UHGV virus genome: UHGV-0119084
Source of the DNA: a virus
Strand: one strand, 5' to 3'
Length of the DNA stretch: 19,527 bases
Both the position numbers and the translations under genes were made by a program. Positions 2,651 through 15,248 of this stretch are shown piece by piece (the first letter of the stretch is position 1; every line of letters starts with the position of its first letter). The notes below the pieces were generated by a model, which saw only the letters and a list, made by a program, of their open reading frames with translations, was not told where the DNA came from and did no database searches.

Positions 2651-2677
2651 AATAATAAAAAAGGAGCCTGTAGCTCC
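2651..2677 (-). terminator. Candidate intrinsic terminator (minus strand)
   Basis: GGAGC-ctgta-GCTCC hairpin; on the minus strand it is followed by a run of U (plus-strand A-run at 2655..2662). Lies just downstream of the 2700..2981 ORF. Confidence 0.45.
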
Positions 2678-5174: not shown

Positions 5175-5381
5175 TTAGTGATTCAGGCCGTTACCGCGTC
5201 CGTCGAGAAAAACTTCCACGAGCAAATCACGGGTATAAGTGCGCTCGATGCCGCGATGCAGATAAAGCCGTCCGCGTAAATTAGCTGATGCAGTCCAGGT
5301 ACCATCTTTGTGTTTGACCAGCATTCCTGGCATGACCGCACCTCGATTAACGGTCTGCGTTCCGTAATGTTGATGAACCAT
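5175..5381 (-). CDS. KilR-like cell-division inhibitor homolog (Rac KilR family); the ORF-track frame extends to 5465 but the internal ATG at 5381 has a strong RBS
   Basis: MVHQHYGTQTVNRGAVMPGMLVKHKDGTWTASANLRGRLYLHRGIERTYTRDLLVEVFLDGRG aligns by eye with Rac KilR as recalled (MIAHHFGTD...YIASANNIKKRKLYIRNL...TDRMIKVYLGRDG). A GGAG lies 6 nt upstream of the ATG at 5381. Sits in the kil position upstream of gam. Confidence 0.55.
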   Translation of the reverse strand: MVHQHYGTQTVNRGAVMPGMLVKHKDGTWTASANLRGRLYLHRGIERTYTRDLLVEVFLDGRGNGLNH

Positions 5382-5658
5382 AAAAACTCCTGCCCGTAAG
5401 CTGGGCTGCTGAACATATAAAGACTTCTGCGCGTATTCAGGCGGTGGATGGCCGCCGGTTGTCATAACTAAGTCGCCTCGTTGAAGCGACTAAGGTATGA
5501 AATGTTGAGTTAATTTCAGCTGGTCACACCGACGTTCACGCGTCCGTTTCACCCCTCGCACTCCCCGGAGCCTGCTGAAATTCAAGCTGCGGATCTAAGC
5601 GGTCATCGCAACGGTGAATCAGGTGATTGCCGTATCGTTGTGTTGTTGCGATGAATTC

Positions 5659-5687
5659 ATTTAAAACTATAGTTGTTTTATCGTCAA
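5659..5687 (-). promoter_or_regulatory. Candidate pL promoter with embedded operator half-sites
   Basis: On the minus strand: TTGACG (-35, plus 5682..5687), 17-nt spacer, TTAAAT (-10, plus 5659..5664). Nearly the same layout and spacer sequence as the pR candidate (TTGACT-aaaaacaaccatagttt-TAATCT). The flanking 5635..5740 is dense in GTTGTT/AACAAC motifs, including the palindrome AACAACaaaaGTTGTT. Confidence 0.5.
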
Positions 5688-5833
5688 CAACAAAAGTTGT
5701 TTTATTGGTTGTTTTAGATATAACTGGTTGTATTTAAGATGGATTTATTTTGTGACTTGCATCGCATAGCGATAACTGAAGCGAGGTCGTGGTGGTTTTT
5801 TGAACGGTTTGTGTGATGAGGGGAGGCAAAAGA

Positions 5834-5857
5834 AAACCCGGCACTGGGGCCGGGTTT
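5834..5857 (-). terminator. Intrinsic terminator ending the cI/gene A/gene B leftward unit (analogous to the lambda immunity-region terminator)
   Basis: Perfect 9-bp inverted repeat AAACCCGGC-actggg-GCCGGGTTT; on the minus strand the stem is followed by UUUUCUUUUG. Lies 76 bp downstream of the gene B stop and upstream of the pL candidate. Confidence 0.65.
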
Positions 5858-5932
5858 AGATGGATAAGAAAGGGTAATAGGGAATGAAAAATCGCTTTGC
5901 GTAATGCAAGGTGGCGAGCAGTTTCTTAAGCA

Positions 5933-6373
5933 CTAAAGAAAAAAGTACATTGATAGCTTATAAAGACCTGTTCCTGCAGCGATGATTGCTGGAACACCAA
6001 GCAATACCGCAAGCTTTGCGTCTGAAATCTTTCTATCGACAGCATCGATGGAGGGTTTTTTGGCTAGTGAATCTTTTATTGAATCGAGTCGCTCCAGAAC
6101 AGCGATCATGTTTCTGTCGATAGATTTGACATCTGTCTTAAGCTCATCAACGTCACGTCGGATATAGGACACATCAGACTCAAGCTTTGCAACTTTCGAT
6201 TCAAGCACATTATTACTCCCAGAGCCACCGCTACCACTTGATTGTAGCATAGGTACATTACCGCCAGACATACCAGCTGATTGAGAAAATGCTGCAGTGT
6301 GCAAAGATGATGATCTTGCCGCTTGTTCAAGCTTTTCAGTTAGGTTTGGAGCTTCGTAATAACCGTGTTTCAT
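5933..6373 (-). CDS. Uncharacterised tail-anchored membrane protein (146 aa): Gly/Ser-rich N-terminal region, central coiled coil, single C-terminal transmembrane helix; gene B of the rex-slot cassette
   Basis: ORF MKHGYYEAPNLTEKLEQAARSSSLHTAAFSQSAGMSGGNVPMLQSSGSGGSGSNNVLESKVAKLESDVSYIRRDVDELKTDVKSIDRNMIAVLERLDSIKDSLAKKPSIDAVDRKISDAKLAVLLGVPAIIAAGTGLYKLSMYFFL. The heptad-like segment LESKVAKLESDV...LERLDSIKDSL and the hydrophobic stretch AVLLGVPAIIAAGTGLY are visible directly. AT-rich by eye relative to the flanking lambda-like DNA. Starts 8 bp after gene A. Confidence 0.6.
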   Translation of the reverse strand: MKHGYYEAPNLTEKLEQAARSSSLHTAAFSQSAGMSGGNVPMLQSSGSGGSGSNNVLESKVAKLESDVSYIRRDVDELKTDVKSIDRNMIAVLERLDSIKDSLAKKPSIDAVDRKISDAKLAVLLGVPAIIAAGTGLYKLSMYFFL

Positions 6374-6381
6374 TGTTAATA

Positions 6382-6651
6382 TTATGACTTATTGGTTTTA
6401 GCTCTATCATGCTGATCGCGAATAAAGTCAGCGAGTTTAAGCATTAAATCTTCCGTCATGCGAATTGTTGCAATGTTGTACTTTACGTTTTCAGTGTCAT
6501 TACTACCATCAGCGCCCCATTCTGTAACATGCTGAAAGAAAGATATGGAGCCTAAGCGATCGTCATCTTCCCCAAAAGATGAATATCCAAATGCATCAGC
6601 ATATGCATCTACACAGTTATTTGATTTTTTTATAAGTTTTTTATCACTCAT
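6382..6651 (-). CDS. Uncharacterised small acidic protein (89 aa); gene A of the rex-slot cassette
   Basis: ORF MSDKKLIKKSNNCVDAYADAFGYSSFGEDDDRLGSISFFQHVTEWGADGSNDTENVKYNIATIRMTEDLMLKLADFIRDQHDRAKTNKS. An RBS-like GGAAAGG lies about 6 nt upstream of the ATG; Asp-rich; C-terminal predicted strand-helix (IATIRM then TEDLMLKLADFIRDQ). AT-rich. No family recognised. Confidence 0.55.
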   Translation of the reverse strand: MSDKKLIKKSNNCVDAYADAFGYSSFGEDDDRLGSISFFQHVTEWGADGSNDTENVKYNIATIRMTEDLMLKLADFIRDQHDRAKTNKS

Positions 6652-6730: not shown

Positions 6731-7420
6731 TTATCCGTGTTTCCTATACGTCTGCGGCATACTGCCAATAACCTTCCCGAAAATGAACACCCGGTTCATC
6801 TCGTCTTTCTCGATCGGGTCCCACGGTGAGTAGCTCTTGTTATCAGAGATAACCAGTAGCTTATCTTTCATCATTTGCAGGCGCTTTACATGGGCTGTGT
6901 CGTCGTACAGAAACGCATAGATACCATCACCGTCGAAAGATTTAACCGTGATATCAACGAACAGCAGATCACCTGGTTCGATCGTTCCTGACATGCTGTC
7001 ACCACGCACGTTAATGATGCGGATATTTTCCGCCTTCCTGCCATCGAACATGTGACGAGCATCGTCAAACGAGTACTCAACCGAGCGTAGAACTTCTACA
7101 AATTCACGGTTGATGACTCCCGGCCCGGCACTCACTTCTATATCAAGAACGTCAATCTTAAAGTATTTGGAATGGCTGACAGTTGATTGTATTGGTTGCA
7201 CTGTACTGTCTGACATATTTCCAACGCCAGAAGATAACCATTCTGCGCGCACACCCAAAGCGTTCGCGATCTCCACGATTTTAGTTGTTTGGTTAGCTTT
7301 CCCTGTTTCGATTTTCTGAATAGCAGCTTGGCTAACCCCGACCAAATCCCCAAGCGCCTTTTGTGTAAGGCCTCGCGCTAATCTGGCTTCTTTAAGTCTT
7401 TCTGAGAGTGTTGTTTTCAT
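6731..7420 (-). CDS. cI: CI-type prophage repressor: N-terminal HTH (Cro/C1 type) plus C-terminal S24/LexA-like autopeptidase domain
   Basis: MKTTLSERLKEARLARGLTQKALGDLVGVSQAAIQKIETGKA... followed by GDSMSGTIEPGDLLFVD (Ser) and AHVKRLQ (Lys), the S24 catalytic dyad context. I place the start at the ATG at 7420 (229 aa) because the ORF-track 251-aa frame reads through the promoter region. Confidence 0.85.
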   Translation of the reverse strand: MKTTLSERLKEARLARGLTQKALGDLVGVSQAAIQKIETGKANQTTKIVEIANALGVRAEWLSSGVGNMSDSTVQPIQSTVSHSKYFKIDVLDIEVSAGPGVINREFVEVLRSVEYSFDDARHMFDGRKAENIRIINVRGDSMSGTIEPGDLLFVDITVKSFDGDGIYAFLYDDTAHVKRLQMMKDKLLVISDNKSYSPWDPIEKDEMNRVFIFGKVIGSMPQTYRKHG

Positions 7421-7426
7421 AGTCCA

Positions 7427-7497
7427 AATGTACAACCAAGGTTTTATTCCATCAAACGAAAATGGTTGTTGACTAAAAACAACCATAGTTTTAATCT
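7427..7497. promoter_or_regulatory. Divergent pRM/pR promoter-operator region
   Basis: pR (plus): TTGACT 7469..7474, 17-nt spacer, TAATCT 7492..7497, then a GGAGG RBS and the cro-like ATG at 7525. pRM (minus): TTGATG (plus 7450..7455), 17-nt spacer, TACATT (plus 7427..7432), ending 6 nt before the cI ATG, so the cI mRNA would be leaderless as in lambda. A 9-bp inverted repeat ATGGTTGTT-gactaaa-AACAACCAT (7462..7486) overlaps the pR -35 and spacer; a further ACAACCA copy lies at 7432..7438. Confidence 0.55.
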
Positions 7498-7524: not shown

Positions 7525-7665
7525 ATGAATCCAGCTATCAAAACAGCGATCAATATCGTTGGTTCACAAAAGAAACTGGGCGCTGCCTGCGAAGTTTCAC
7601 AGCAGGCCGTCTATAAGTGGCTTCACAACAAAGCAAAGGTAAAGGCGTTTACCCGAATCAGGTAA
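7525..7665 (+). CDS. cro: Cro-like HTH protein (P22 Cro/YdaS-like), 46 aa, probably C-terminally truncated
   Basis: Translation MNPAIKTAINIVGSQKKLGAACEVSQQAVYKWLHNKAKVKAFTRIR; the HTH pattern (G.Q..LA...VS..AV..W) resembles P22 Cro and Rac YdaS. The last 10 codons read through iteron-like repeats and the stop lies in ori-like sequence. Confidence 0.6.
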   Translation: MNPAIKTAINIVGSQKKLGAACEVSQQAVYKWLHNKAKVKAFTRIR

Positions 7666-8132
7666 ACACAAAAGACAAACTAACAAAAGACAATATAAAA
7701 CCTTTTTCGTCCGAGAATTCTGGCGAATCCTCTGACCAACCAGAAAACGATCTTCCTGTGGAGAAACCAGATGCTGCAATTCAGAGCGGCAGCAGGTGGG
7801 GGACAGCAGAAGACCTGACCGCCGCAGAGTGGATGTTTGACATGGTGAAGACCATCGCGCCATCAGCCAGAAAACCGAATTTTGCAGGGTGGGCTAACGA
7901 TATCCGCCTGATGCGTGAACGTGACGGACGTAACCACCGCGACATGTGCGTGCTGTTCCGCTGGGCATGCCAGGACAACTTCTGGTCCGGTAACGTGCTA
8001 AGTCCGGCCAAACTCCGCGACAAGTGGACCCAACTCGAAATCAACCGTAACAAGCAACAGGCTGGTGTGACTGCCAGCAAACCAAAACTCGACCTGACGA
8101 ACACTGACTGGATTTACGGGGTGGAGCTATGA
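7617..8132 (+). pseudogene. O: Replication initiator O, C-terminal (P-interacting) portion only; the N-terminal iteron-binding domain and cII are absent
   Basis: The frame encodes ...SSENSGESSDQPENDLPVEKPDAAIQSGSRWGTAEDLTAAEWMFDMVKTIAPSARKPNFAGWANDIRLMRERDGRNHRDMCVLFRWACQDNFWSGNVLSPAKLRDKWTQLEINRNKQQAGVTASKPKLDLTNTDWIYGVEL, matching the lambda O C-terminal half as recalled. It opens only at a GTG inside the cro-like ORF with no RBS. A full O would be about 300 aa. Confidence 0.7.
7638..7666. repeat. Iteron-like repeats (GGTAAA x2 and inverse TTTACC) directly upstream of a lambda-ori-like AT-rich stretch; probable origin remnant
   Basis: GGTAAAggcgTTTACCcgaatcaGGTAAA followed by cacaaaagacaaactaacaaaagacaatataaaacc, which resembles the A/T-rich part of lambda ori (inside the O gene) as I recall it. 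Confidence 0.35.
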
Positions 8133-8830
8133 AAAACATCGCCGCACAGATGGTTAACTTTGACTGTGAGCAGATGCGCCGGATCGCCAACAACATGCCG
8201 GAACAGTACGACGAAAAGCCACAGGTACAGCAGGTAGCGCAGATCATCAACGGTGTGTTAAGCCAGTTACTGGCAACTTTCCCGGCGAGCCTGGCTAACC
8301 GTGACCAGAATGAACTGAACGAAATCCGCCGCCAGTGGGTTCTGGCTTTCCGGGAAAACGGGATCACCACAATGGAACAGGTTAACGCTGGAATGCGCGT
8401 AGCCCGTCGGCAGAATCGACCATTCCTGCCATCACCCGGGCAGTTTGTCGCCTGGTGCCGGGAAGAAGCATCTGTTAACGCCGGGCTGCCAAACGTCAGC
8501 GAGCTGGTTGATATGGTTTACGAGTATTGCCGGAAGCGTGGCCTGTATCCGGATGCAGAGTCTTATCCGTGGAAATCGAACGCGCATTACTGGTTGGTTA
8601 CCAACTTGTACCAGAACATGCGGGCCAATGCGCTGACTGACGCGGAATTACGGCGCAAGGCTGCCGATGAACTGACCTGTATGACAGCGCGAATTAACCG
8701 TGGTGAGACGATACCTGAACCAGTAAAACAACTTCCTGTTATGGGCGGTAGACCTCTAAATCGTGCACAGGCTCTGGCGAAGATCGCAGAAATTAAAGCT
8801 AAGTTCGGACTGAAAGGAGCAAGTGTATGA
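8129..8830 (+). CDS. P: Replication protein P (DnaB helicase loader)
   Basis: 233-aa ORF MKNIAAQMVNFDCEQMRRIANNMPEQYDEKPQVQQVAQIINGVLSQLLATFPASLANRDQNELNEIRRQWVLAFRENGITTMEQ...; near-identical to lambda P as recalled; 4-nt overlap with the O stop. Confidence 0.95.
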   Translation: MKNIAAQMVNFDCEQMRRIANNMPEQYDEKPQVQQVAQIINGVLSQLLATFPASLANRDQNELNEIRRQWVLAFRENGITTMEQVNAGMRVARRQNRPFLPSPGQFVAWCREEASVNAGLPNVSELVDMVYEYCRKRGLYPDAESYPWKSNAHYWLVTNLYQNMRANALTDAELRRKAADELTCMTARINRGETIPEPVKQLPVMGGRPLNRAQALAKIAEIKAKFGLKGASV

Positions 8831-9129: not shown

Positions 9130-9196
9130 TGAAACAGGTGAGTTGAGTTCAAACTGTAGTACAATTCTCTCCAGTTTGAACAGGAAAGAATATGCT

Positions 9197-9529
9197 ATGA
9201 ACCCTTATATTTATCTTGGTGGTGCAATACTTGCAGAGGTCATTGGTACAACCTTAATGAAGTTTTCAGAAGGTTTTACACGGTTATGGCCATCTGTTGG
9301 TACAATTATTTGTTATTGTGCATCATTCTGGTTATTAGCTCAGACGCTGGCTTATATTCCTACAGGGATTGCTTATGCTATCTGGTCAGGAGTCGGTATT
9401 GTCCTGATTAGTTTACTGTCATGGGGATTTTTCGGCCAACGGCTGGACCTGCCAGCCATTATAGGCATGATGTTGATTTGTGCCGGTGTGTTGGTTATTA
9501 ATTTATTGTCACGAAGCACACCACATTAA
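9197..9529 (+). CDS. emrE: Small multidrug resistance (SMR) efflux transporter EmrE, 110 aa, four TM helices
   Basis: MNPYIYLGGAILAEVIGTTLMKFSEGFTRLWPSVGTIICYCASFWLLAQTLAYIPTGIAYAIWSGVGIVLISLLSWGFFGQRLDLPAIIGMMLICAGVLVINLLSRSTPH matches E. coli EmrE; start set at the internal ATG preceded by AGGAAAG. The ORF-track frame begins 18 codons earlier. Confidence 0.93.
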   Translation: MNPYIYLGGAILAEVIGTTLMKFSEGFTRLWPSVGTIICYCASFWLLAQTLAYIPTGIAYAIWSGVGIVLISLLSWGFFGQRLDLPAIIGMMLICAGVLVINLLSRSTPH

Positions 9530-9559
9530 AATAATTTGTTTCTAAACGACTAAAATATG

Positions 9560-9590
9560 GAGGCTCTTATATTTATATGAGCCTCGTTTT
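9560..9590 (+). terminator. Intrinsic terminator downstream of emrE
   Basis: GAGGCTC-loop-GAGCCTC hairpin followed by GTTTTATGCTTTTT. Confidence 0.55.
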
Positions 9591-9783
9591 ATGCTTTTTG
9601 TTAATGTCTTTATTTTTTATGTATTCTTTTGTGCTTTCAAGATTATGGCGTAAGAAAATTGCAATACGATTATTGTTGTATATTCAAGATAATGTGACCT
9701 TAATTGTCTTTTTAAATAAAAATTAAACAAAAATTATATCCCACCACTAAGGTTTATAAAAGCATACGTTAGCAGGTGTCACC

Positions 9784-11310
9784 ATGAAAAAAGCCATAGC
9801 ATATATGCGATTTTCATCACCAGGTCAGATGTCTGGTGACTCATTAAACCGACAGAGAAGACTTATTGCTGAATGGTTAAAGGTAAATAGTGATTATTAT
9901 CTTGATACCATAACATATGAAGATTTAGGATTAAGTGCATTCAAAGGAAAGCATGCACAATCAGGAGCTTTTTCGGAATTTTTAGATGCTATAGAGCATG
10001 GTTATATATTGCCAGGAACTACATTGTTAGTTGAAAGTCTGGACAGACTTTCAAGAGAAAAAGTCGGTGAAGCGATTGAACGTCTGAAATTGATTTTGAA
10101 TCACGGTATTGATGTTATAACTCTTTGCGACAATACAGTCTATAATATTGACTCTTTGAATGAGCCATATTCATTAATAAAAGCCATACTTATAGCACAA
10201 AGGGCAAATGAAGAAAGCGAGATAAAGTCAAGTCGGGTTAAATTATCATGGAAGAAAAAACGGCAGGATGCAATGGAATCAGGTACGATTATGACGGCGT
10301 CTTGTCCGAGATGGCTCTCCTTAGATGACAAAAGAACGGCTTTTGTTCCAGACCCCGACAGGGTGAAAACTATTGAGCTAATTTTTAAACTCAGGATGGA
10401 AAGGCGCTCATTGAATGCAATAGCCAAGTATTTAAATGATCATGCTGTAAAGAATTTCTCAGGAAAAGAAAGTGCATGGGGACCTTCTGTAATTGAAAAA
10501 TTATTAGCGAATAAAGCTCTGATAGGTATATGCGTACCTTCATATCGTGCAAGAGGGAAAGGGATAAGTGAAATCGCTGGCTATTATCCCAGAGTTATAT
10601 CAGATGATTTGTTTTACGCTGTACAGGAAATTCGGTTGGCACCTTTTGGTATTAGCAATAGTAGCAAGAATCCTATGCTAATAAATCTACTTCGAACAGT
10701 TATGAAGTGTGAGGCTTGTGGTAATACCATGATTGTTCATGCGGTATCTGGAAGTTTGCATGGCTATTATGTTTGTCCGATGAGAAGATTACATCGATGT
10801 GACAGGCCATCAATAAAAAGAGATTTGGTTGATTATAATATCATTAATGAATTGCTTTTTAATTGTAGCAAAATTCAACCAGTTGAAAACAAGAAAGATG
10901 CTAATGAAACTTTAGAGTTAAAAATTATTGAGCTTCAGATGAAAATTAATAATTTAATCGTTGCATTGTCTGTCGCGCCTGAAGTTACCGCTATAGCAGA
11001 GAAAATAAGACTATTAGATAAGGAATTACGAAGGGCTTCGGTATCATTGAAAACTTTGAAGAGTAAAGGTGTAAATTCATTCAGTGATTTTTATGCTATT
11101 GACTTAACCAGTAAAAATGGACGAGAGTTATGCCGTACACTTGCCTATAAAACATTCGAAAAAATCATAATTAATACGGATAATAAAACCTGTGATATCT
11201 ATTTTATGAATGGCATTGTTTTTAAACACTATCCTTTAATGAAAGTAATATCCGCCCAGCAGGCGATAAGTGCTCTCAAATATATGGTTGATGGTGAGAT
11301 TTATTTCTAA
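9784..11310 (+). CDS. ybcK: Large serine recombinase (resolvase-type N-terminal catalytic domain, Cys-rich zinc-ribbon and coiled-coil C-terminal region); DLP12 YbcK-like
   Basis: 508-aa ORF; N-terminus MKKAIAYMRFSSPGQ... has the serine-recombinase catalytic motif context; Cys cluster CEACGNTMIVHAVSGSLHGYYVCPMRRLHRC; coiled-coil segment LELKIIELQMKINNLIVALS. Very AT-rich gene and flanks. Confidence 0.8.
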   Translation: MKKAIAYMRFSSPGQMSGDSLNRQRRLIAEWLKVNSDYYLDTITYEDLGLSAFKGKHAQSGAFSEFLDAIEHGYILPGTTLLVESLDRLSREKVGEAIERLKLILNHGIDVITLCDNTVYNIDSLNEPYSLIKAILIAQRANEESEIKSSRVKLSWKKKRQDAMESGTIMTASCPRWLSLDDKRTAFVPDPDRVKTIELIFKLRMERRSLNAIAKYLNDHAVKNFSGKESAWGPSVIEKLLANKALIGICVPSYRARGKGISEIAGYYPRVISDDLFYAVQEIRLAPFGISNSSKNPMLINLLRTVMKCEACGNTMIVHAVSGSLHGYYVCPMRRLHRCDRPSIKRDLVDYNIINELLFNCSKIQPVENKKDANETLELKIIELQMKINNLIVALSVAPEVTAIAEKIRLLDKELRRASVSLKTLKSKGVNSFSDFYAIDLTSKNGRELCRTLAYKTFEKIIINTDNKTCDIYFMNGIVFKHYPLMKVISAQQAISALKYMVDGEIYF

Positions 11311-14837: not shown

Positions 14838-15221
14838 ATGCGTGATATTCAGATGGTTCTTGAGCGTTGGGGAGCGTGGGCGGCTAATAATCATGAAGAT
14901 GTGACCTGGTCGTCCATTGCCGCCGGTTTTAAGGGATTAATTCCTTCAAAAGTAAAATCTCGCCCGCAATGTTGTGACGATGACGCGATGATCATTTGCG
15001 GGTGCATGGCCCGTCTGAAAAAGAACAACAGCGATTTGCACGATTTATTAGTAGATTATTATGTAGTCGGTATGACATTCATGTCACTGGCAGGTAAGCA
15101 TTGCTGCTCTGATGGTTATATCGGGAAAAGGTTACAGAAGGCTGAGGGCATAATTGAAGGGATGTTAATGGCATTAGATATCCGGTTAGAGATGGATATC
15201 GTTGTTAATAACTCTAATTAA
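14838..15221 (+). CDS. quuD: Q-family late-gene antiterminator (DLP12 QuuD-like)
   Basis: [64 protein letters not shown]...; a GGAG lies about 8 nt upstream of the ATG at 14838. The ORF-track frame begins at an upstream TTG. Confidence 0.8.
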
Positions 15222-15248
15222 TACGCCAATTATTTACTAAAAGTTATT

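Follow-up and report, generated by a model that had tools for sequence, protein, structure and literature searches.

Comparative analysis of the early-left leader in a widespread lambdoid prophage family without recognisable N, nut or put elements

The N protein and nut sites of phage lambda are the textbook case of processive antitermination, N being needed for read-through of the terminators distal to the early-left promoter pL, and lambda derivatives of the nin5 type show N-independent early expression through the absence of terminators. Lambdoid phages without N are already known, namely HK022, HK639 and LLS. In HK022 and HK639, a non-coding RNA, put, is made from approximately +1 of pL; put RNA acts in cis on RNA polymerase via the zinc-binding domain of the beta' subunit (PMC9378689). 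LLS is a lambdoid phage reported to be N-less, and the presence of put was only speculated by its authors. Here, we analysed a stretch of 19,527 nucleotides (nt) of the virus genome UHGV-0119084 (hereafter the window). It is a lambda-like prophage, and the interval 5382-5932 lies at the left edge of its immunity region. This interval carries a pL and an untranslated leader of approximately 270 nt, which spans from the pL start to the kil start codon at 5381. Our analyses place the locus outside the put family and outside the N/nut system, in a lambdoid family lacking N, nutL and put, and we consider it fairly probable that its early-left operon is independent of N.

Like lambda, the locus has the order cI, rex-position cassette, t-imm, oL/pL and leader, as well as gam, bet and exo and identical distal terminators; unlike lambda, it has no N open reading frame (ORF), no boxA, no boxB and no tL1-type terminator. 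On the minus strand, reading leftward, cI is followed by two cassette genes, a terminator, an AT-rich operator and promoter region, the leader, kil, gam, bet and exo, with exo, bet and gam in the left arm of the prophage as in lambda and a right arm resembling DLP12. The initial annotation, made from the sequence of the window, had reported an early-left operon without N and without any ORF of 60 amino acids (aa) or more between the cassette terminator and kil, and both statements hold: the longest ORF on either strand within 5466-5932 has 36 aa, a 96-aa ORF ending at 5465 is an upstream in-frame extension of kil, and no N-like PHROG match was obtained in the immunity region of the window or among the early proteins of unknown function in PhiR5_1. 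The same N-less gene order is given by the PGAP annotation of a 100% identical prophage in Escherichia coli SW070917 and by the annotations of related phages; in the window, 4A7, PhiR5_1, O157:H7 and PK8241, N is absent and the gene order is kept.

No nut site accompanies this arrangement. The boxA motif (YGCTCTTWA, allowing up to one mismatch) was not found in 5382-5700, and its count over the whole window was that expected by chance. For boxB, defined as a 5-bp stem with a purine-rich pentaloop, there was no candidate, the sole hairpin with a 5-bp stem and a loop of 4-6 nt being the top of the conserved hairpin described below (loop CAACG). The single GACAA in the leader sits outside any loop. 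An overlooked Arg-rich ORF with a nut site, the case foreseen in the initial annotation, was not borne out either. A 31-codon frame with a TTG start (5490..5585, minus strand) does contain KRTRERR, which we take to resemble the Arg-rich motif of N-type proteins such as lambda N, and we do not regard it as a gene: a Shine-Dalgarno sequence and a PHROG match are both lacking (PHROG scans of all mini-ORFs were empty), tblastn returned only its own family and no homolog among N genes, its TAG stop is CAG in most relatives, 7 of its 11 variable sites are non-synonymous, and there is no boxA or boxB nearby. The frame encodes KRTRERRCDQ, and in relatives with CAG it continues through the AUG at 5465 into kil, the substitution of CAG for TAG thus accounting for the over-long Kil annotations in some phage records.

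The search for put RNA required a model of its own. A comparison of the window and the leader with Rfam 15 gave no match at the gathering or E-value threshold, and this negative is uninformative for put because HK022 putL and putR were unmatched too, Rfam holding no put family. Therefore, we built a put covariance model, R1, from eight put RNAs (HK022 putL and putR, and those of HK639, UPF_BP1, phiEt88, CobraSix, S9-5 and PdC23), and covariation within this alignment confirmed the two-stem structure of put. As a control, R1 recovered all of the sites used in training and the untrained putR of UPF_BP1 and phiEt88 at 54-101 bits. Its best match in the window reached only 9.3 bits (E = 0.8) at 15148-15222, no match fell in the leader, and nothing in the window and three close relatives exceeded 9.3 bits. 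The leader resembles put in position alone, since it begins at approximately +1 of pL; in contrast to HK022 and HK639, there is no copy on the pR side and no covariation. Thus, the put-like antitermination that had been speculated upon initially is not supported, the covariance model being negative in the leader and a second, pR-side copy being absent; an RNA unrelated to put that works in a similar way may still be present. The fold z-score was rejected as a test of put-likeness, as genuine put RNAs themselves fold at non-significant values (z = -1.1 to +0.5), and fold z-scores are therefore undecisive on a put-like RNA.

The contrast that carries most weight concerns the terminator preceding the leader's 3' part, a module shared with other phages and beginning with CAUACC. 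A GC hairpin with a T run lies just 5' of the CATACC motif in 70 of 75 distinct contexts from outside the family and in none of the 22 family contexts. In phi80, the hairpin before the module is annotated as tL1A and stands directly after N, and a tL1-type terminator just 5' of the CAUACC module is found both in phages bearing N (phi80 and lambda) and in phages bearing put (HK639 and CobraSix). Two IMG/VR contigs, L035 (approximately 6160-6300) and L038 (approximately 8420-8560), are among the exceptions to the 70 of 75, put taking in them the place that the 5' leader has in the window: each has a CobraSix-like putL with the module within about 15 nt and no terminator between, so that put abuts the same hairpin module in some put phages. 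As judged from the sequences, the family is without both an antitermination device and a tL1-type terminator, having either lost them or never had them. Our reading of the left operon as independent of N as far as exo is based mainly on this double absence; antitermination is probably not needed for kil, gam, bet and exo. In this respect the family resembles the nin5-type derivatives and LLS, where early genes are expressed without N and terminators are absent, and it differs from them in being naturally and widely N-less together with a lambda-type recombination module and the distal terminators of lambda.

The start of the leader was defined by pL. The promoter proposed initially, TTGACG-17-TTAAAT at 5687-5659 on the minus strand, was confirmed on reading the sequence, with the -35 hexamer at 5687-5682 and the -10 hexamer at 5664-5659 within an operator and promoter region, oL/pL, at 5659..5713. 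It is indeed almost a copy of its counterpart pR, which lies with the oR operators at 7469..7497 on the plus strand (TTGACT-17-TAATCT), 25 of 29 positions being identical. Its description as near-consensus was correct for the 17-nt spacing and too generous for the hexamers, which match the consensus at 9 of 12 positions; a strict consensus scan omits pL because TTAAAT has no A at position 2 of the -10 hexamer. Operator repeats of the type AACAAC-N4-GTTGTT lie at 5677-5662, 5701-5686 and 5713-5698, and repeats common to pL and the pR region 7451-7494 comprise the inverted repeats I1, I4 and I11 and the direct repeat D7. Relatives of a second immunity type have a promoter of their own, TTGATA-17-TATTAT, at an equal distance from the conserved leader start, which provides an independent argument for pL. 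In addition, homology across immunity types begins at 5651, 1-2 nt from the expected transcription start. Judged by these comparisons, the assignment of pL is sound. A 5-bp inverted repeat, ATCGC-TAT-GCGAT, was also observed at 5761-5773, between the cassette terminator and the operators.

The leader had been described as GC-rich and as folding into several hairpins, and each description stands in part. Its GC content of 0.52 exceeds that of the window (0.446); it is not distinctive, as kil, gam, bet and exo have 0.50-0.52, and it contrasts only with the AT-rich operator region (0.35). One hairpin is significant, and the leader overall is not more structured than its shuffles (z = -1.4 to -1.6). 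The leader is a composite of a family-specific 5' part of 150 nt from +1 and a shared 3' module of 120 nt. Motifs resembling RfaH ops and sigma-dependent pause sites were looked for in the leader by eye only, were at chance level and were set aside.

Copies of the shared module (5502-5382) were found in phi80, HK639, HK225, Klebsiella KO-TP1, Enterobacter ENT1 and over 120 IMG/VR contigs. Its components are a hairpin with CAUAC and GUUAUG on its flanks, a 26-nt core, a spacer that varies, the GAAGUCUU block, another hairpin of small size, and the Shine-Dalgarno sequence and start codon of the next gene. The stem AGTCGC/GCGACT at 5470-5489, noted initially, is real and forms the core of a 39-nt hairpin (5462..5500, minus strand) with a predicted energy of -17.1 kcal/mol (z = -5.8, reached by 0 of 200 shuffles), which is built of a lower stem UCAUA/UAUGA, CU/AG, a variable 6-bp middle AGUCGC/GCGACU, a top UUC/GAG and the loop AAC. 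Among 95 distinct sequences, aligned by MAFFT without fitting to the structure, two-sided changes were seen in seven of the eight pairs tested, with up to 6 pair types per position and 96.8% of cells paired. The covariation score of 0.456 was reached by none of 500 shuffles (0.14) and fell to 0.087 or less on sliding of the partner columns. The same fold is predicted in lambda, HK639, phi80 and KO-TP1, and five diverged versions have z-scores of -3.7 to -5.8. The frequency of U-G pairs places the structure on the sense strand of pL, and the hairpin is thus a conserved RNA structure of the pL transcript.

This hairpin is one member of a conserved leader element of lambdoid phages, to which a hairpin before cIII in lambda also belongs. 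A model of the module gave a weak match to lambda at 33478-33521, just 5' of the cIII ribosome-binding site and just after a terminator-like hairpin, and a similar match upstream of cIII in HK022; a pattern scan for lambda-type hairpins added almost no diversity. The lambda copy and the region after tL1A in phi80 share with the window the architecture CAUAC, UUC-loop-GAG and GUUAUG, and in both phages the hairpin stands between an intrinsic terminator, directly 5' of it, and the cIII/kil block, whose first gene comes next. In lambda there is only the hairpin, then the cIII Shine-Dalgarno sequence, whereas in the window a 26-nt core and an 84-nt spacer separate it from kil and no terminator precedes it. 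As for termination, the window hairpin has the stem of a terminator and no U tract, its tail UUAGUUAUG not being called by our scan. The hairpin has no match in Rfam 15, and no published function for it was retrieved from the literature. PreS/LPR1, an Hfq-binding small RNA from the pL transcript between ea10 and ral, whose 3' end is tL2a with a GC stem and a poly-U tail, is likewise a regulatory RNA within a lambdoid early-left transcript; its identity with the hairpin was rejected, as locus and sequence differ. The Pas small RNAs, located in the late region, were considered irrelevant.

The invariant 26-nt core, AUGACAACCGGCGGCCAUCCACCGCC (5440..5465, minus strand), forms a small hairpin of GGCGG (5456-5452) with CCGCC (5444-5440), and its AUG at 5465 is part of the lower stem of the 39-nt hairpin. 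CobraSix (1 nt shorter) and S9-5 (3 nt shorter) retain GGCGGC(C/U)AUCCACCGC with an altered peptide or frame. Because of these indels, and because the spacers fall into all three length classes, the core is conserved as RNA and not as peptide. The distal part of the module (5382..5439, minus strand) contains the GAAGUCUU block at 5427-5420, a hairpin of GCCC (5406-5403) with GGGC (5395-5392) and the Shine-Dalgarno sequence AGGAG at 5391-5387. It folds at chance level (z = 0.04), and the GAAGTCTT block with its arrangement of CGTTC, hairpin and Shine-Dalgarno sequence is found before many different first genes.

The 5' leader (5503..5652, minus strand, approximately +1 to +150) is non-coding and has no supported structure (z = -0.8). 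No homologs were found outside the family by blastn or tblastn, in the phage collection or upstream of kil in other genera. The leader was absent from all nine loci that a kil-anchored scan with one genome per species yielded in Citrobacter, Kluyvera, Silvania, Enterobacter and Pseudocitrobacter, so no distant homologs are available for covariation in the 5' part. Within the family, diversity is 0.024 in the 5' leader, 0.054 at third codon positions of kil and 0.001-0.009 at Kil protein positions. No compensatory changes were detected among 36 distinct family variants, which have approximately 10 variable sites, several of them breaking pairs of the predicted fold, and the O157:H7 type has a different sequence in place of the first 37 nt. 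A C-rich, rut-like 5' end (15 C versus 7 G in the first 45 nt) was discounted, since it is not kept in the O157 type. A second copy of either leader part was found neither in the window nor in the complete PhiR5_1 genome by blastn-short and nhmmer. In the linker that joins the 5' leader to the hairpin (approximately 5503-5515), a 5-nt unit is tandemly duplicated in some relatives (L080, L109 and L136; CAACTCAACTCAAC versus CAACTCAAC), which suggests that this linker tolerates changes in length.

The arrangement of pL, leader and kil is widespread. It occurs in 2231 of 5426 complete E. coli genomes (41%) at 95-99% identity, always unannotated. Sixteen phage records also have it, among them 4A7 (Bievrevirus), Perceval, Turner and the PhiR series, and it is combined with three immunity types and varied cassette cargo. 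The alternative offered initially, deletion of the N region, does not agree with this distribution if taken as a defect peculiar to this prophage: the layout is neither a private defect nor the result of a recent loss of N. N and tL1 may have been lost together in one old event at the origin of the family.

If the operon is N-independent, as we favour, RNA polymerase would proceed after loss of the repressor from pL straight through kil, gam, bet and exo, with no need of antitermination. The hairpin module would then act post-transcriptionally on the delayed-early message and would not be an antiterminator; it may serve in RNase-dependent processing or stabilisation, in the control of translation initiation (an AUG is sequestered at its base) or in weak termination or pausing. 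Several points weigh against this reading. The role of the hairpin is one that we infer, and our terminator and promoter scans used simple consensus patterns. Rho-dependent termination may occur within the 270-nt untranslated leader. The 5' leader varies somewhat less than synonymous sites do and has its start exactly at +1, and it may therefore have some function. N proteins are very diverse, and an unrecognisable N analogue may be encoded elsewhere in the genome. Moreover, four terminator-like hairpins identical to those of lambda are kept between exo and xis: a distal intrinsic terminator at 2663..2677 on the minus strand (GGAGCTACAGGCTCC then TTTTTTATTA), an exact match to lambda 30670-30689, and three further hairpins at 1344-1323, 1312-1293 and 1116-1097 on the minus strand, whose lambda copies lie between ea8.5 and xis. 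As these terminators are kept without N, expression of ea22, xis and int from pL is left unexplained. In favour of N-independence, a simple scan on the right side listed no strong plus-strand terminator from cro to Q in PhiR5_1.

It is this unexplained expression of xis and int that leads us to grant a small probability to the 5' leader (5652-5503), alone or with the module, being a new cis-acting antiterminator RNA, unrelated in sequence to put, that would modify RNA polymerase to pass the distal terminators shared with lambda and to reach xis and int. The 5' leader sits at +1 of pL, as HK022 putL does; in L035 and L038 a put RNA occupies its exact place, abutting the module without a terminator; it accompanies the absence of N in every family member, with the lambda-identical terminators kept downstream; its diversity is below that of synonymous sites; and its non-significant fold z-scores are no argument against such a role, true put RNAs being no different. 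However, it shows no similarity to put by the covariance model and has no second copy in the right operon or elsewhere, its 36 variants include no compensatory changes and several of the variable sites break predicted pairs, the O157:H7 type has exchanged its first 37 nt, and the constraint on it is far weaker than that on Kil protein positions. We therefore regard this explanation as rather unlikely, and the narrower claim that the family-specific 150-nt RNA at +1 of pL represents a new class of cis-acting antiterminator, unrelated to put, as unlikely. If true, the 150-nt RNA would let unmodified E. coli RNA polymerase pass the distal terminators shared with lambda and would explain expression of xis and int after induction in the N-less phages of approximately 40% of complete E. 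coli genomes.

Other explanations assign the leader a local role or none. The hairpin at 5500-5462 could be an attenuator: by weak intrinsic termination or by pausing, it would yield a pL RNA of about 190 nt and restrict the passage of transcription into kil. Its stem is strong, the lambda copy is followed by UUUUUCGUUAU, a U run, part of the module is annotated as a terminator in HK639, and the phi80 record M11919 labels the whole region as 't-L1 regulatory signal terminator'. A cluster of tL2 termination sites is known from about this region of lambda. One of them, tL2a, has been placed by a published study between ea10 and ral. In the window, however, the tail has only 4 U in 8 nt and was not called by the scan, this tail itself pairs with CAUA in the lower stem, and, in the absence of an antiterminator, efficient termination at this point would leave the recombination genes of the family silent; attenuation is thus improbable. 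It is more doubtful still that the leader is partly coding, with an upstream ORF from AUG 5465 (MTTGGHPPP..., a polyproline stall motif) or a Kil isoform of at least 96 aa controlling kil. An AUG is present in every copy of the hairpin, the one in lambda starting a mini-ORF of 3 codons whose end falls within the cIII Shine-Dalgarno sequence; the frame from AUG 5465 enters kil in the window, a 291-nt Kil is given in some phage records, and GAG(G) lies 11 nt 5' of this AUG. But the AUG is base-paired in the lower stem, spacers of 5, 7, 9, 18 and 20 nt put the downstream conserved block into all three frames, the indels of CobraSix and S9-5 alter the peptide and retain the RNA sequence, the upstream peptide has no PHROG match, and a strong Shine-Dalgarno sequence precedes only the ATG at 5381. 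Finally, the layout could be a product of decay through deletion of N, nutL and tL1, with the Arg-rich frame at 5585-5490 as what is left of N. Such a view could draw on the damage to the window prophage elsewhere (a 1243-bp deletion from cro' through a cII-like gene to O'), on the insertion sequence (IS) and truncated integrase of the near-identical SW070917 copy, on the likeness that we assume between KRTRERR and N-type motifs, and on the position of the shared module directly after N-tL1A in phi80. Yet an identical leader is present in 41% of complete E. coli genomes and in phage records that give laboratory strains (E. coli C and K-12) as host. For the Arg-rich frame, there is no N-gene homolog, no Shine-Dalgarno sequence and no boxA or boxB upstream, and its stop codon is polymorphic. 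Decay is accordingly very unlikely, whereas an ancient founding deletion would be no rival to the N-independent operon that we favour and would agree with it.

On either side of pL and the leader, the genes of the left edge are readily assigned. The first gene of the pL operon, kil (5175..5381, minus strand, 68 aa), matches phrog_294, 'Kil protein for bacterial septation inhibition' (E = 1.3e-37), and its product is named 'phage encoded cell division inhibitor protein' by PGAP; it starts at ATG 5381, with AGGAG as its Shine-Dalgarno sequence, and is 207 nt long in RefSeq 4A7 and by PGAP. Upstream of pL, the cI-cassette operon, which starts with cI (6731-7486, minus strand), ends in an intrinsic terminator (5834..5857, minus strand), the equivalent of t-imm, with a 9-bp stem of which 6 pairs are GC, followed by TCTTTTGCCT. 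The two genes in the rex position (6382-6651, 89 aa, phrog_4231; and 5933-6373, 146 aa, phrog_3556; both on the minus strand) have annotations without a function. Among relatives of the same immunity, homology stops at the terminator, and the cassette beyond varies. The rex-position slot, from cI to the terminator before pL, holds different cargo in each relative (5933-6651 in the window, and likewise in L001, L002, L012 and L013): a pair annotated as HipA/HipD in PhiR5_1, a SIR2-family gene in O157:H7, an ASCH-domain gene with a hypothetical gene in 4A7 and a BamE-like lipoprotein gene in PK8241. This variety suggests a hot spot for morons or defence genes.

The right arm, from 9143-11310 onward, resembles DLP12 of K-12, with emrE, ylcJ and ybcK after ren according to the PGAP annotation of the identical SW070917 copy. 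That copy adjoins ybhC, in the lambda attachment region, together with an IS3-family element and a truncated integrase. Compared with the otherwise 100% identical SW070917 prophage, the window misses 1243 bp from within cro to within O, the junction being at 7637-7641 (region 7525-8132) with a 5-bp overlap. As a result of this deletion, cro is cut to 46 aa, the YdaT-domain gene in the cII position is gone and only the C-terminal part of O remains (7617-8132). Normal replication and regulation are probably lost in this copy.

Taken together, the window represents a very common natural relative of lambda in which the recombination genes and the distal terminators are kept and N, nut, put and tL1 are absent. 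It raises a testable question as to whether antitermination is dispensable in this family or is supplied by something unrecognised. In addition, since the leader hairpin is common to lambda, where it lies upstream of cIII, to phi80, HK639 and many prophages, its function may be approached directly in lambda.

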